Below, piece after piece: positions 54,880 through 58,189 of a DNA stretch of 64,000 bases; the first letter of the stretch is position 1; each line of letters starts with the position of its first letter. Source of the DNA: Candidatus Omnitrophota bacterium. GTDB lineage: Bacteria; Omnitrophota; Gorgyraeia; Gygaellales; Gygaellaceae. Where the stretch lies: positions 198,815 to 262,814 of the forward strand of contig JAGYNB010000001.1 in NCBI GenBank assembly GCA_018400015.1, given 5' to 3'. A program made the translations under genes and the position numbers. The notes below the pieces were generated by a model. The model ran no database searches. It saw nothing but the letters and a program-made list of their open reading frames with translations, and had not been told where the DNA came from.

Positions 54880-55992
54880 ATGTTAAAAGAACATGAGTGC
54901 ATTTTAAGATGCTGTAAGTTTTCTCCATCAGGAGAAGATATAGAAAGGATAAAAGAAATTCCTTTTTTTTCTTTTAACTGGTCTAGCGTTATTTGGGAAC
55001 TTGGTCGTCAGCAGGTTTTGCCATTAGTTTATTTTAATCTCAATAGAATAATTCAGGATAAGAAATTGGATTTTACTTTGCCCGCTGTACTTAAAAACAA
55101 ATATTATTCCACAGCAGCGGTCAATATGAAATTATGGCAGGAATACCGTAGTATTAATGAGTTATGTATTCAGAGAAAAATCAGGATTGTTGGCTTAAGA
55201 GGTATTATTTTTTCTTATACGCTTTATCCTGTTAATGCGTTACGAAATTTAAGAGATATAGATATATTAGTTCAGGAGAAAGATATCTTTTCAATAAGAG
55301 ATATTCTCATTTTAAACGGATATCGGCATGTTCCTTCGCCAGGTTTTTTTGCTTACGATATCAAAAATGAATGCGGAACTAATTTTGTTAAAAATTGCGG
55401 AGCAATAAATATTATCCTTAATGTTCATTGGTCCTTGGCTTCAAGACGTCCGTATAGTCTGTTTTTGCCCGAATTGTGGGGTAGGGTTAAAGAAATAAAA
55501 ATTGATAATGTTGTTGTATCGGTTTTATCAGCAGAAGATAATGTTTTGTCGTTAGCTCTGCATTTAAGAAGACATTGCCGTTCCTTGTGCTTAAAATATA
55601 TATTCGACATAAAAGAGGTTATCGAAAAAGAAAAGGATATTGATTGGGATTATATATACAAGTATTCAAGAATAAATCATATCAGAAATACCGTTTATTT
55701 CTCGCTTTATATGTGTAGAACGCTTTTTAATACAATGAATATAGAGAATCAAGTTATAAGATTTAACCCCGGAGCGCTTAGAAAGAAATTAATAAGGTTA
55801 ATTATTAATAAAGAGAATTACTTTTACCATAACTCTTTTAAAGGAATCATGTTAAGATTATTGCTTTTTGATAGAGTGATAGATATTGTTGTTTATTTAT
55901 TTCGTGTTAGCTTTATTGAGAGATTGGTATATAATAAATTGTTTACAGCTGGATTTTTGAGAAAACTGTTTTCAAAGCGGACAAAGTCATGA
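54880..55992 (+). CDS. putative nucleotidyltransferase of the PF14907-like family seen in kinase-associated lasso/RiPP clusters
   Basis: 370-aa ORF. Conserved acidic residues in an LRDIDILV region are consistent with a minimal nucleotidyltransferase fold. The assignment rests on recollection of the family. Confidence 0.45.
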   Translation: MLKEHECILRCCKFSPSGEDIERIKEIPFFSFNWSSVIWELGRQQVLPLVYFNLNRIIQDKKLDFTLPAVLKNKYYSTAAVNMKLWQEYRSINELCIQRKIRIVGLRGIIFSYTLYPVNALRNLRDIDILVQEKDIFSIRDILILNGYRHVPSPGFFAYDIKNECGTNFVKNCGAINIILNVHWSLASRRPYSLFLPELWGRVKEIKIDNVVVSVLSAEDNVLSLALHLRRHCRSLCLKYIFDIKEVIEKEKDIDWDYIYKYSRINHIRNTVYFSLYMCRTLFNTMNIENQVIRFNPGALRKKLIRLIINKENYFYHNSFKGIMLRLLLFDRVIDIVVYLFRVSFIERLVYNKLFTAGFLRKLFSKRTKS

Positions 55993-55994
55993 TA

Positions 55995-56023
55995 TTGACA
56001 TATAAATATGGATATGATACTAT
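55995..56023 (+). promoter_or_regulatory. sigma-70-like promoter for the RiPP-like operon
   Basis: TTGACA (55995-56000), a 17-nt spacer and TACTAT (56018-56023) lie ~40 nt upstream of the 56061 start. Confidence 0.35.
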
Positions 56024-56060
56024 ATCTACAAGTTAATATTTTCACATAAGTTTAAAGAAT

Positions 56061-56990
56061 ATGAAGTGTTATAGAAAAAAATGTAAGAAAGTTTTATTTT
56101 CGGTATTGTTTTATTTAATGGTAAGCGTTGCTTATGTTAATTATGGTTTTACCCAGGGGGAAGTGGTGGAGGAGTTAGAATTTAAGCCGCAAATAGGTAG
56201 CGTGTGGGATTATAAGGCGAGTTTTGAGATTACTTCCAAGCGTCAATTTAAAGATCTATCACAGGATGTAATAGATAGTTTTGGTCCTGCTAGGGACTTT
56301 CAAATGTTTGCCGATATTCTTTTTTCTGCTGAGGTTGAAAACGAGAGAGATCCCACAAGATTAACTTTGACTTATAAAGATATTGATATGAGGTTAGTTG
56401 TCAATGGGCAAGAGTTGTCGCCTCCAGATTCTATTACAAATAAAGGTTTAGAGGGGAAAGCTATTGAGCTTTCTATATTTACTCGAGATAATAGCGTTAT
56501 TGAGGATTTTAGCGGAATAAATGATGAATTGCTTCCGTATGCTAAAAATATGTTGAATATTGCTAAGTTTTTCTATGATTTTCCTTCTCAAACAGTAAAA
56601 ATGGGAGATAAATGGAATAGCGATAATAAATTTAAATTAGCGCCTATCGGGTCACTAGAAATCATACAAATAAGTAAAAATGAATATTCTTTTAAGGCAG
56701 TCAAGAATATTAACGGGCAAGATTGTGCCTATGTAAGAAAAGATTCATCGATAACACAGGAATCAGCGGCTGTTGAGAATAATACTATAGTGAGTGGTCG
56801 CGGTGATGGATATCTGACGACGGATATATATTTTGATTTAGATGACGGTAAATTGGTAAGGTCTGAGATAGAATCTTCCGTAGATTCGTCTTTTGATATT
56901 GCAGGCGATGTTTTAGGACAGGGTAAATTATTGGTTAATACTGTTCAGAAGTCGAGGATCGAAATGTTAGCGGGGAGAAATAATGAGTAA
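56061..56990 (+). CDS. secreted hypothetical protein; its stop overlaps the start of the precursor-like peptide gene
   Basis: 309-aa ORF with a signal-peptide-like N-terminus. It overlaps the next gene by 8 nt (aATGAGTAA). Confidence 0.4.
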   Translation: MKCYRKKCKKVLFSVLFYLMVSVAYVNYGFTQGEVVEELEFKPQIGSVWDYKASFEITSKRQFKDLSQDVIDSFGPARDFQMFADILFSAEVENERDPTRLTLTYKDIDMRLVVNGQELSPPDSITNKGLEGKAIELSIFTRDNSVIEDFSGINDELLPYAKNMLNIAKFFYDFPSQTVKMGDKWNSDNKFKLAPIGSLEIIQISKNEYSFKAVKNINGQDCAYVRKDSSITQESAAVENNTIVSGRGDGYLTTDIYFDLDDGKLVRSEIESSVDSSFDIAGDVLGQGKLLVNTVQKSRIEMLAGRNNE

Positions 56991-57168
56991 AAACCGGGCT
57001 AAAGCCAAAATAATTAAGGAAAAAAAAGTTTTTGTTGAACCGTGCATGGAAAAGCAGAATTATATATCTGATTTTGGCGCTACAAGTACTGGAAGTATAT
57101 TAGTAGTTACTTCTGTTGTAAGCGGCGTAGTAGGCGGTGTTTTATTCGGTGCTTGGGTTTCTTCGTAG
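56983..57168 (+). CDS. candidate RiPP precursor peptide (61 aa; charged leader, Gly/Ser/Thr/Val-rich core, C-terminal Ser-Ser)
   Basis: MSKNRAKAKIIKEKKVFVEPCMEKQNYISDFGA | TSTGSILVVTSVVSGVVGGVLFGAWVSS. It lies immediately upstream of the HprK-like kinase and RRE genes. The core contains no Asp/Glu. Confidence 0.5.
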   Translation: MSKNRAKAKIIKEKKVFVEPCMEKQNYISDFGATSTGSILVVTSVVSGVVGGVLFGAWVSS

Positions 57169-57250
57169 ATATTGCTTATTTTTTACAATCTCAGCGGTTA
57201 AATTTCTCCTGAAAAAAAGCATTTGTTTTTAAATATTTCAACAATGATAA

Positions 57251-58189
57251 ATGTTTATTCAGTATAAAAAAGTAGATCTTCCAATAATTGCCACCCAGAT
57301 AATAACCAAGAATATACCAATTTTTGATCTGCTTAATTCAATTAAAGAAAGTCAGATATTTATTAATTATCCGAAAAGCAGAAAGTTTTTCATTAAAGTT
57401 TTTATATTCGATTACGATGATTTTTTTGCTGAAATAAAAAATATTTTATGTGAAACAAAGGAACATATAAAAAACCCTATTTTTTTTGTTTTTAAAAAAG
57501 GAATTATTAGCGAGGGAAGACGGCTTGCTATGTTTGTCAGCATAGAAGAAAATAAGGTTAGTTTGTTAAAGAAATATTTAACTTTTTTGAATTCAATTGT
57601 TTCCATTTTATTAGAGCCAGATGGAATATTTCGTTTTCACGGGGGGTATATATCTAATAATCTCGGGAAGATTTTGATTACTGGAAAAACAGGTTGTGGA
57701 AAGTCTACGTTACTTTACAATATTGCTAAATCGGGTTTTAATTCTATAAACGATCGTTATTGTTTGGTATCTCAAGAAAGAAGTATTGTTAAGGTTGCAT
57801 CTGTAGTCAAAATGACCGATACCAATCAACTAAAAAGAATCAATATAAGAGTTTTCAATAGAGTTAAGCCGTTGCGTTTCAATTTAGGAAAATTTTCTCT
57901 GGTAGAATCTTTAAAGCCGAATATTATAATATTCCCTCAGATATCCAATCGTTACAAATCAGAATTAATTGAAATACCGGAGCAAGAAACATTTGGCCGC
58001 TTAATTAGTTCTTCGAGCGCGTCTTATAATAAATCTTTGCAGGTTAAGCAGGTGCAGGTTAATTTAATGAAGAAATTAGCAAAGCAATGCATAGGGTATA
58101 TTTTTGCCAGCGGCAAAGAGTCCGTGGAAGATCCGAATTTTAGATCTTATCATATTTTGGAAAAAGGTTTCAGGCTGCACAAAAACTAA
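57251..58189 (+). CDS. HPr kinase/phosphorylase C-terminal-domain-like P-loop kinase (RiPP Ser kinase candidate)
   Basis: A P-loop GKTGCGKST is present in the arrangement typical of the HprK C-terminal domain. It sits downstream of the precursor, as in paeninodin-type clusters. Confidence 0.6.
   Translation: MFIQYKKVDLPIIATQIITKNIPIFDLLNSIKESQIFINYPKSRKFFIKVFIFDYDDFFAEIKNILCETKEHIKNPIFFVFKKGIISEGRRLAMFVSIEENKVSLLKKYLTFLNSIVSILLEPDGIFRFHGGYISNNLGKILITGKTGCGKSTLLYNIAKSGFNSINDRYCLVSQERSIVKVASVVKMTDTNQLKRINIRVFNRVKPLRFNLGKFSLVESLKPNIIIFPQISNRYKSELIEIPEQETFGRLISSSSASYNKSLQVKQVQVNLMKKLAKQCIGYIFASGKESVEDPNFRSYHILEKGFRLHKN

Follow-up and report, generated by a model that had tools for sequence, protein, structure and literature searches.

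Does a small precursor gene that lies between a nucleotidyltransferase gene and a gene for an HPr kinase (HprK)-like protein necessarily specify a phosphorylated lasso peptide? The question is raised by a 64,000-nt stretch of DNA from a Candidatus Omnitrophota bacterium (contig JAGYNB010000001.1; the whole stretch is hereafter referred to as the window), in which positions 54880-58189, on which the present analysis was centred, hold four + strand genes encoding products of 370, 309, 61 and 312 amino acids. A preliminary description had viewed the 370-residue nucleotidyltransferase (NTase) and the 312-residue HprK-like protein as the tailoring enzymes of a paeninodin-type system, in which the Ser-Ser terminus of the 61-residue precursor would be phosphorylated and perhaps also nucleotidylated. 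As described below, the locus is instead a rare, non-lasso cluster for a ribosomally made, post-translationally modified peptide (RiPP) that is built around radical S-adenosylmethionine (SAM) enzymes and makes use of lasso-type leader-processing and tailoring genes.

The genes located 3′ of the 312-residue open reading frame (ORF) are tightly packed and encode a PqqD protein, a radical SAM enzyme, a B2 peptidase, a B12-dependent radical SAM enzyme and an ABC-2 pump. The conserved gene set thus consists of the NTase, the exported 309-residue protein, the precursor, the HprK-like protein, PqqD (a RiPP recognition element, RRE), the radical SAM/SPASM enzyme, the lasso-type B2 peptidase, the B12-binding radical SAM enzyme and the ABC-2 pump. 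Lasso traits are evident in the B2 protein, which scores above the cut-off of the NF033537 family, in the B1-like PqqD RRE and in a Thr residue at leader position −2 that is invariant in four precursors. However, we detected no Asn-synthetase-like cyclase (PF00733-type) in the ORFs of the cluster, in the other large ORFs of the window or in the precomputed Pfam annotations of the related loci L013, L014 and L017, and the SGGxDS PP-loop motif is absent from every frame of the window and of the 19 related loci. We also considered a lasso cluster having its cyclase elsewhere in the window, and rejected it for the reason that none is encoded in the 64 kb or in any syntenic locus. The assignment to a paeninodin-type system had to be abandoned on the same evidence. 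The cluster ORFs gave no match to the signal-peptidase family (SpI-like/SipW-type); the peptidase is of the B2 type and the pump is of the ABC-2, not the MsbA-like, type.

Four small ORFs, those of the window, L013, L014 and, recovered by profile search, L021, have a Lys-rich N terminus in common and share, with identical spacing, the leader F(-21)-x-E-P(-18)-x-M(-16)-x-K...Y(-11)...F(-7)...T(-2)-x. The precursor of the more distant locus L017 keeps the sequence F-L-E-P-E-M-K-K, and the motif [FYW]xEPx[hydrophobic] is present in exactly one small ORF per locus. That the 61-residue ORF is a chance ORF was rejected, since the leader spacing is conserved in five loci and the motif occurs once in each. 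The FxxPxM element of the leader fits the published RRE-binding motif, [Y/W]xxPx[L/V/I/F/A] (PMC13381572). The cores that follow the leader are variable and very hydrophobic, having grand average of hydropathy (GRAVY) values of 1.5-2.5 and a Val+Ala+Gly content of 54-93%. An invariant Thr at leader position −2 is a hallmark of B2-processed lasso leaders. Because the invariant Thr lies two residues before the hydrophobic stretch, we predict that B2 cleaves the window precursor after Thr36-Gly37, which would give a leader of residues 1-37, ending in T-G, and the core SILVVTSVVSGVVGGVLFGAWVSS. The L017 precursor (positions 6568-6723 of that locus) has a Cys-rich core, SSCGCSNCGCSACW.

If the C-terminal Ser were the site of modification, one might look for it in the related precursors. 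The precursors terminate in SS in the window, W in L013, N in L014 and W in L021, and that of L017 also ends in W. Ser, Thr and Tyr are entirely missing from the predicted cores of L013 and L014. The only hydroxyl residues conserved across the four precursors of the clade are those of the leader, Thr(-2) and Tyr(-11), and L017 lacks both.

The gene for the HprK-like protein begins 83 nt after the precursor gene and specifies the P-loop GKTGCGKST at residues 145-153; a P-loop protein resembling the C-terminal part of HprK is, as first described, encoded right after the precursor. Its family membership was less readily established. The direct match to PF07475 fell short of significance (E 0.054; 13.5 bits, cut-off 33.3), the match to TIGR04352 (HprK_rel_A) reached E 4.9e-7 with 29 bits against a cut-off of 200, and single-sequence searches (phmmer against the Protein Data Bank (PDB), Pfam and NCBIfam) returned only generic P-loop noise. 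A word-indexed search detected three relatives in 5.8 billion proteins, and an exhaustive profile search detected 772, only five of them at E < 1e-30. The family is very rare: 1.8 billion protein cluster representatives include only five of its members. A tblastn search with the protein gave no match to plasmids. The relatives themselves are informative. Among 65 that were aligned, 64 match TIGR04352 (HprK-related kinase A), 60 match HprK-related kinase B, 58 match PF07475, 49 match ScmC and nine give FomB-type matches, and residues H130, G150 and K151 of the H-x(n)-GxxGxGK[ST] P-loop signature are invariant. When the family profile was compared with the PDB, the best five matches were HPr kinase/phosphorylase structures (5e-8 to 7.5e-6), the alignments spanning the His...P-loop...DD segment. 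An AlphaFold2 (AF2) model based on the 65 sequences had a mean predicted local distance difference test score (pLDDT) of 76 and a predicted template modelling score (pTM) of 0.78, as compared with a pLDDT of 36 for a version based on 3 sequences. The 50 PDB matches listed by Foldseek for the model (18 at E <= 0.001) were to ATP-dependent PEPCK and HprK/P only, with PEPCK at the top. Because the profile, transitive and fold evidence agree despite the sub-threshold PF07475 score, the identification of the product as a divergent HprK/PEPCK-fold P-loop protein is secure; the PF07475 assignment proposed at the outset did not hold as a direct match, but the homology that it implied is borne out by the family profile, the relatives and the fold.

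The protein is not a genuine HPr kinase/phosphorylase. It has no match to the equivalog TIGR00679 at E <= 0.1, PF02603, the N-terminal domain of HprK, was not matched, and no HPr His-signature was found within the 64-kb window. The proposal of a genuine HprK/P acting with an HPr partner was rejected on the lack of an equivalog match and of an HPr signature in the window.

The active site of the protein departs from that of its characterized counterparts. In HPrK/P the proton acceptor is Asp179, located 18 positions after the P-loop Lys. The window protein retains H130, the P-loop and D168, and has R169 at the position equivalent to Asp179. Of the 65 aligned sequences, 58 have D and 3 have E here (acidic in 61/65); the window clade accounts for precisely the four non-acidic exceptions (R, R, H and S), and a fragment, P0003, has G. 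We compared the protein with PadeK, PsmK and LppK by means of the published motif and context descriptions. PadeK and PsmK act on lasso precursors, which they phosphorylate at the C-terminal Ser, and the PsmK D158A/D159A double mutant is inactive (PMC6993621, PMC9266682). Judged by the alignment, the window clade has lost the canonical catalytic base. Either the acceptor or the mechanism would have changed, or another residue may serve as the base, and any remaining phosphate transfer by the protein is putative. The predicted phosphorylation at the C-terminal Ser is, therefore, doubtful: W, N and W are the terminal residues of the sister precursors, two of the cores are free of hydroxyl groups and the equivalent of Asp179 is missing.

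Unlike the HprK-like protein, the NTase was assigned directly. It matches PF14907 with 137.5 bits (cut-off 31.2) over profile positions 3-249 of 249, which confirms the family named in the preliminary description. Hence neither circumstance that would have undermined that description, a genuine HprK/P or an NTase from outside PF14907, was encountered. Residues G108, D126 and D128 are invariant in the four orthologues (window, L013, L014 and L017) and constitute an intact Pol-beta-type G...DxD metal-binding motif; by motif rather than by direct alignment, the DxD pair probably corresponds to D134/D136 of PsmN. The NTase gene is located upstream of the precursor gene in L013, L014 and L017. A PDB profile search uncovered no solved structure for the family, and tblastn against plasmids matched only Rhizobium plasmids, in which the gene context was uninformative. 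PsmN, itself a PF14907 protein, is needed for the attachment of one or two hexoses to the phosphate of the modified Ser and is inactivated by mutation of D134/D136; the published work left undecided if it acts directly or via a host enzyme (PMC6993621, PMC9266682). Deletion of lppN from the cluster of a linear polyphosphorylated peptide (LPP) had no visible effect in a heterologous host (PMC13381572). The view that the NTase partner is functionally uncharacterized is thus outdated with respect to PsmN, which is required for hexosylation of phospho-Ser, but still holds in that the lppN deletion is silent and the chemistry undefined.

The close syntenic loci were obtained by look-ups of exact proteins; pattern scans of genome and metagenome contigs provided distant relatives only. 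L013 and L014 show full synteny, carrying the NTase, a 300-residue exported protein, the small ORF, the HprK-like protein, PqqD, the radical SAM enzyme, B2, the B12-binding radical SAM enzyme and the ABC-2 pump, with transglutaminase-like, GT4 (family 4 glycosyltransferase) and PMT_2 genes in one or the other flank. The order precursor, HprK-like gene, PqqD is common to the window, L013 and L014. L001 and L002 are fragments whose contigs start inside the HprK-like gene, so that the order HprK-like gene-PqqD is seen and synteny is partial. In L002, a metagenome contig, the HprK-like gene (22-857) is split into two overlapping ORFs, owing to a frameshift or a sequencing error. The distant loci L017 and L018 (HprK-like protein E 3e-18) carry the same gene set in shuffled order. 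In L017 the HprK-like protein retains the DD motif and bears the precomputed Pfam label PF27840 (ScmC); its gene overlaps the flanking radical SAM/SPASM and PqqD genes, and the operon includes PMT_2 and GT4 genes with overlapping ends. L017 also encodes a type I phosphodiesterase, a PF00953 phosphoglycosyl transferase and three PqqD proteins.

The HprK-like gene adjoins PqqD in 10 of the 19 related loci, which are all of those having a contig that extends long enough past the HprK-like gene. In the more distant lineages represented by L003, L006 and L010, PqqD again adjoins the HprK-like gene, and PF14907 follows where the contig is long enough; in L006, three GT2 glycosyltransferases and a Wzx-type flippase are encoded between the genes of the trio, and a polysaccharide deacetylase comes after them. 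In the 374-residue protein P0076, an HprK-like domain (approximately residues 59-259) is fused to a C-terminal PqqD domain (288-368), an arrangement that supports physical coupling of the HprK-like and PqqD proteins. Because the RRE, HprK-like and PF14907 genes recur beside glycan-assembly genes in unrelated lineages, we regard the trio as a recurrent module that travels with such genes. A glycosylation step belonging to the system is suggested by the conservation of the transglutaminase-like, GT4 and PMT_2 genes beside the cluster in L013 and L014 and within the operon in L017. Another cyclase-less cluster was observed in L015 (1543-4379) and in L016; it encodes an HprK-like protein, a 2-oxoglutarate-Fe(II) oxygenase, two near-identical 53-residue peptides (...NTSGF[AN]GSPP...) and PqqD, and therefore the HprK-like/RRE pair serves yet another RiPP-like context.

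In its logic the window cluster is closest to the LPP family. LPP clusters encode an RRE, the HprK-like LppK, the NTP-transferase LppN, an SpI-like peptidase and an MsbA-like pump without a cyclase, and in Bacillota they are embedded in glycosyltransferase-rich capsule loci (Popov et al., Nat Commun 2026; PMC13381572). LppK polyphosphorylates Ser3 of the core, beside the cleavage site, and the phosphorylation promotes leader cleavage (PMC13381572). In both systems the leader carries an [aromatic]xxPx[hydrophobic] motif, Thr is conserved at the junction to be cleaved and the surroundings are rich in glycosyltransferases. They differ in that the LPP SpI-like signal peptidase and MsbA-like pump are replaced in the window by a lasso-type B2 Cys protease and an ABC-2 pump, and in that the window adds two radical SAM enzymes and the exported 309-residue protein. 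Moreover, the cores of the window family are Val/Ala/Gly-rich and may be Ser-free, the DD motif of the window HprK-like protein is missing its second Asp, and the host is apparently a low-GC Gram-negative bacterium (having lipid A and heptosyltransferase genes), whereas the LPP hosts are Bacillota. With the paeninodin and pseudomycoidin clusters the window shares the split B1 (PqqD)/B2 arrangement, the HprK-like protein, the PF14907 NTase with its DxD motif, the ABC exporter and Thr(-2), but it lacks the C cyclase and an Asp/Glu macrolactam acceptor in the core, does not conserve the C-terminal Ser, has a degenerate DD motif and encodes radical SAM enzymes.

Two other groups of peptide clusters bear comparison with the window. 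The SynChlorMet cassette, a computationally defined system of hypothetical function (NCBIfam TIGR04248-04251), comprises ScmC (HprK-like), ScmD (PqqD-like) and ScmE/ScmF (radical SAM/SPASM). The gene order HprK-like, PqqD, radical SAM/SPASM is the same in the window, where PqqD matches ScmD at 1e-4 and the radical SAM enzyme matches ScmF/ScmE at approximately 1e-22. The window proteins nevertheless fall far under the Scm cut-offs, the HprK-like protein itself has no ScmC match, and B2, the B12-binding radical SAM enzyme, the NTase and the ABC-2 pump are additional. Literature searches on SynChlorMet, on HPr kinase with PqqD and radical SAM, and on PF13471/PF14907 yielded nothing relevant. Proteusins of the polytheonamide type and epipeptides are RiPPs with hydrophobic, Val/Ala/Gly-rich cores, and their clusters encode relatives of B12-dependent radical SAM C-methyltransferases together with a second radical SAM enzyme. 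The window resembles them in the composition of its core and in possessing a B12-binding radical SAM enzyme (TIGR03975, E 4e-46) along with a second radical SAM enzyme; it differs in having no NHLP/Nif11 leader, no PoyD-type epimerase that could be identified, and lasso-like handling of the leader.

By analogy with the characterized systems, an RRE-linked HprK-like kinase and a PF14907 NTase would form a pair for peptide phosphorylation and further decoration (PMC6993621, PMC13381572). We tentatively propose, with a confidence that falls a little short of even, that the HprK-like protein and the NTase of the window are the tailoring pair of a non-lasso radical SAM RiPP cluster with lasso-type leader handling. 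From the gene identities, the synteny, the conserved leader, the lack of any cyclase and the missing catalytic Asp of the clade, all of which are established, we infer each chemical step and the site of cleavage as follows. The PqqD protein would bind the FxxPxM motif of the leader and so make the precursor accessible to three kinds of enzyme: the HprK-like protein, both radical SAM enzymes and the B2 peptidase. The HprK-like protein would use ATP on the RRE-bound precursor ahead of cleavage by B2, and the acceptor, if LPP Ser3 is a guide, would most likely be a hydroxyl at the junction (Thr-2, or Ser+1 in the window) and not the C-terminal Ser. The PF14907 enzyme might then decorate this phosphate, or a group close to it, in the way that PsmN is involved in adding hexose; the GT4 and PMT_2 gene products possibly supply or extend the sugar. 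The two radical SAM enzymes would modify the Val/Ala/Gly core by C-methylation and perhaps epimerisation, chemistries that, because of the core composition, would be open to all members of the family. B2 most likely cuts after Thr(-2)-x, which would release a very hydrophobic Val/Ala/Gly-rich peptide for export by the ABC-2 pump.

Several observations weigh against this proposal. The direct Pfam and NCBIfam scores of the HprK-like protein are far under the curated cut-offs, and the acidic residue at position 169 is replaced, by R, H, S or G, in the window clade only. Given that PsmK is inactive when DD is changed to AA, classical Ser-kinase chemistry may be impaired in this clade. The cores of L013 and L014 are hydroxyl-free if the cut follows Thr-x, and a conserved phospho-site would thus leave with the leader. 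Finally, with a lppN deletion that has no phenotype, the activity of the PF14907 NTases is still undefined.

One alternative hypothesis is that a kinase of the paeninodin/pseudomycoidin type phosphorylates the C-terminal Ser of the core (VSS) and that the NTase adds a nucleotide or a sugar to the phosphate. The Ser-Ser terminus of the window precursor is in keeping with this, as are the specificities of PadeK and PsmK for a C-terminal Ser and of PsmN for the resulting phosphate, and B1, B2, the HprK-like protein and the NTase are all present as in those clusters. We think, however, that this is improbable, because there is no lasso cyclase, the sister precursors and that of L017 do not end in Ser, the Asp179 equivalent is lost in the clade, and the sole cyclase-free precedent, LPP, phosphorylates Ser3 and not the C terminus. 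A more serious contender is that the HprK-like protein of the window clade is no longer a protein Ser/Thr kinase and instead functions as an ATP-binding scaffold or chaperone of the RRE complex, in the manner of ScmC, or phosphorylates a nucleophile that needs no base, such as a carboxylate (for example, the C terminus of the peptide), a phosphate or a sugar, the product of which the NTase and glycosyltransferases would use. The clade-specific loss of D/E at position 169, with the P-loop, His130 and D168 remaining in place, would be explained in this way, as would the finding that two of the four cores are hydroxyl-free; in addition, the wider family includes small-molecule phosphotransferases (the FomB-type relatives, with PEPCK as the top structural match), and ScmC-type proteins, which have no demonstrated kinase activity, are always encoded beside PqqD and radical SAM/SPASM genes. 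On the other hand, every RiPP-associated HprK-like protein that has been tested experimentally is a peptide Ser kinase, the adjacency to and fusion with the RRE favour a peptide substrate, and a neighbouring residue could serve as the base. On balance we consider a repurposed protein possible but unlikely.

It could also be argued that the HprK-like, NTase, GT4, PMT_2 and transglutaminase-like genes make up an envelope glycan pathway and are mere neighbours of an independent radical SAM RiPP cluster. PF14907, HprK-like and PqqD genes do occur among polysaccharide genes in L006, LPP and paeninodin clusters sit in capsule loci, and a promoter-like site separates the NTase gene from the remainder of the cluster. 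But the HprK-like gene lies between the precursor and PqqD genes in every member of the clade and, in L017, overlaps its radical SAM/SPASM and PqqD neighbours, the NTase gene keeps its place just upstream of the precursor across distant loci, and HprK-like-PqqD fusions exist, all of which render such a pathway the least probable of the explanations considered here. A bolder version of the tailoring proposal, which we offer as a speculation that is quite unlikely to be correct, is that the HprK-like protein, repurposed after losing the Ser-activating Asp but still bound to the RRE machinery, acts with PF14907 and GT4/PMT_2 to attach a phosphate-, nucleotide- or sugar-linked head group to a membrane-active, Val/Ala/Gly-rich peptide modified by radical SAM enzymes, with epimerisation and C-methylation possible as in polytheonamide or gramicidin. 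Such a product would be a ribosomal "peptidolipid" that serves as an anchor or forms pores and whose head is a glycan or a phosphate.

The features of the cluster and its flanks are collected in Table 1. The HprK-like and NTase genes lie on either side of the precursor gene as originally outlined, but they do not strictly bracket it: the gene of the 309-residue protein intervenes, and the NTase gene is not adjacent to that of the precursor. The 309-residue protein has orthologues in the same position at L013 and L014; a role in immunity, as a carrier or as a chaperone is conceivable. Its gene overlaps the precursor gene by 8 nt, and the two are possibly translationally coupled. The NTase gene, upstream of the other three, had been thought to open the operon; this is uncertain because the best promoter-like site lies 3′ of it. 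Promoter-like sites are no commoner in the region than expected from shuffled sequences, and the site is thus a hint only. The GT4, transglutaminase-like and PMT_2 genes form the flanks of the RiPP gene set, and an RsuA/RluB-type pseudouridine synthase gene is likewise located upstream of the NTase gene, along with the transglutaminase-like and GT4 genes.

Table 1. Features of the RiPP cluster and its flanks, with positions numbered from the first nucleotide of the window (HMM, hidden Markov model).
Feature	Position	Strand	Evidence and remarks
Transglutaminase-like protein, 323 aa	52024-52995	+	PF01841 E 1.4e-4; L013/L014 orthologues beside cluster, local HMM E ~1e-175
GT4 glycosyltransferase	52986-54161	+	PF00534 3.7e-23, PF13439; orthologues in L013, L014 and within L017 operon
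Nucleotidyltransferase, PsmN/LppN-like, 370 aa	54880-55992	+	PF14907 NTP_transf_5 E 7.4e-40
Promoter-like site TTGACA-17-TACTAT, TG-extended	55995-56023	+	Top score in 54100-64000, 10/12 matches
309-aa protein, N-terminal hydrophobic signal/anchor	56061-56990	+	Weakly DUF6263-like, PF19777 E 1e-4 (below cut-off)
Precursor peptide, 61 aa	56983-57168	+	GGGGAG Shine-Dalgarno-like sequence 5′; conserved leader
HprK/PEPCK-fold P-loop protein (ScmC/HprK-related), 312 aa	57251-58189	+	Profile, transitive and fold evidence
PqqD-family RiPP recognition element, lasso B1-like	58211-58531	+	PF05402 1.3e-12; Lasso_PqqD_Bac 1.3e-10 (below cut-off)
Radical SAM enzyme, partial SPASM/twitch C terminus	58531-59541	+	PF04055 2e-25; ScmF and ScmE ~1e-22
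Lasso-type B2 leader peptidase (transglutaminase-like Cys protease)	59546-60013	+	NF033537 lasso_biosyn_B2 40.5 bits, cut-off 33; PF13471 4.8e-7
B12-binding radical SAM enzyme, related to RiPP C-methyltransferases	60032-61855	+	TIGR03975 4e-46 (below cut-off); PF04055, PF02310
ABC-2 type exporter	ATPase 61833-62627, permease 62608-63465	+	PF00005 5.9e-26, PF01061 1.3e-8
PMT_2-type (GT-C) membrane glycosyltransferase, N-terminal part, continues beyond window	63471-64000	+	HMM from L013/L014/L017 PMT_2 proteins, 3.6e-54

The G+C content of the cluster is approximately 31-35%. Almost all long ORFs of the window are on the + strand, and the GC skew is positive over the profiled 48-64 kb. The window also encodes a lipid A acyltransferase and a GT4-heptosyltransferase fusion, which together imply a diderm host. 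Farther upstream, an ORF gap at 41322-41521 contains a full-model Rfam match to a group I catalytic intron (87 bits; gathering score 50), and no tRNA was detected by ARAGORN in 41000-42000. A fluoride riboswitch (crcB motif) at 42367-42430 (56.4 bits; gathering score 34) is located directly 5′ of an ORF at 42449-42838.

Studies of the trio of RRE, HprK-like kinase and PF14907 NTase have so far been confined to lasso peptides, joined in 2026 by the linear LPPs of Bacillota. The window cluster is a third biosynthetic setting of the trio, one with a B2 peptidase, two radical SAM enzymes, glycine/valine-rich cores and a Gram-negative-type genome. Its architecture is rare and undescribed, and its tailoring module is a variant of the RRE, HprK-like and NTase combination in a radical SAM RiPP context. 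The loss of the catalytic base together with hydroxyl-free cores was unexpected and provides a natural experiment on what HprK-like proteins and their NTase partners recognize and transfer. The cluster bears, too, on the question of why the module so regularly adjoins glycan-assembly genes; if the head-group hypothesis is true, the RRE, HprK-like protein and NTase would be a general peptide-priming device for glycan attachment across lasso peptides, LPPs and radical SAM RiPPs.

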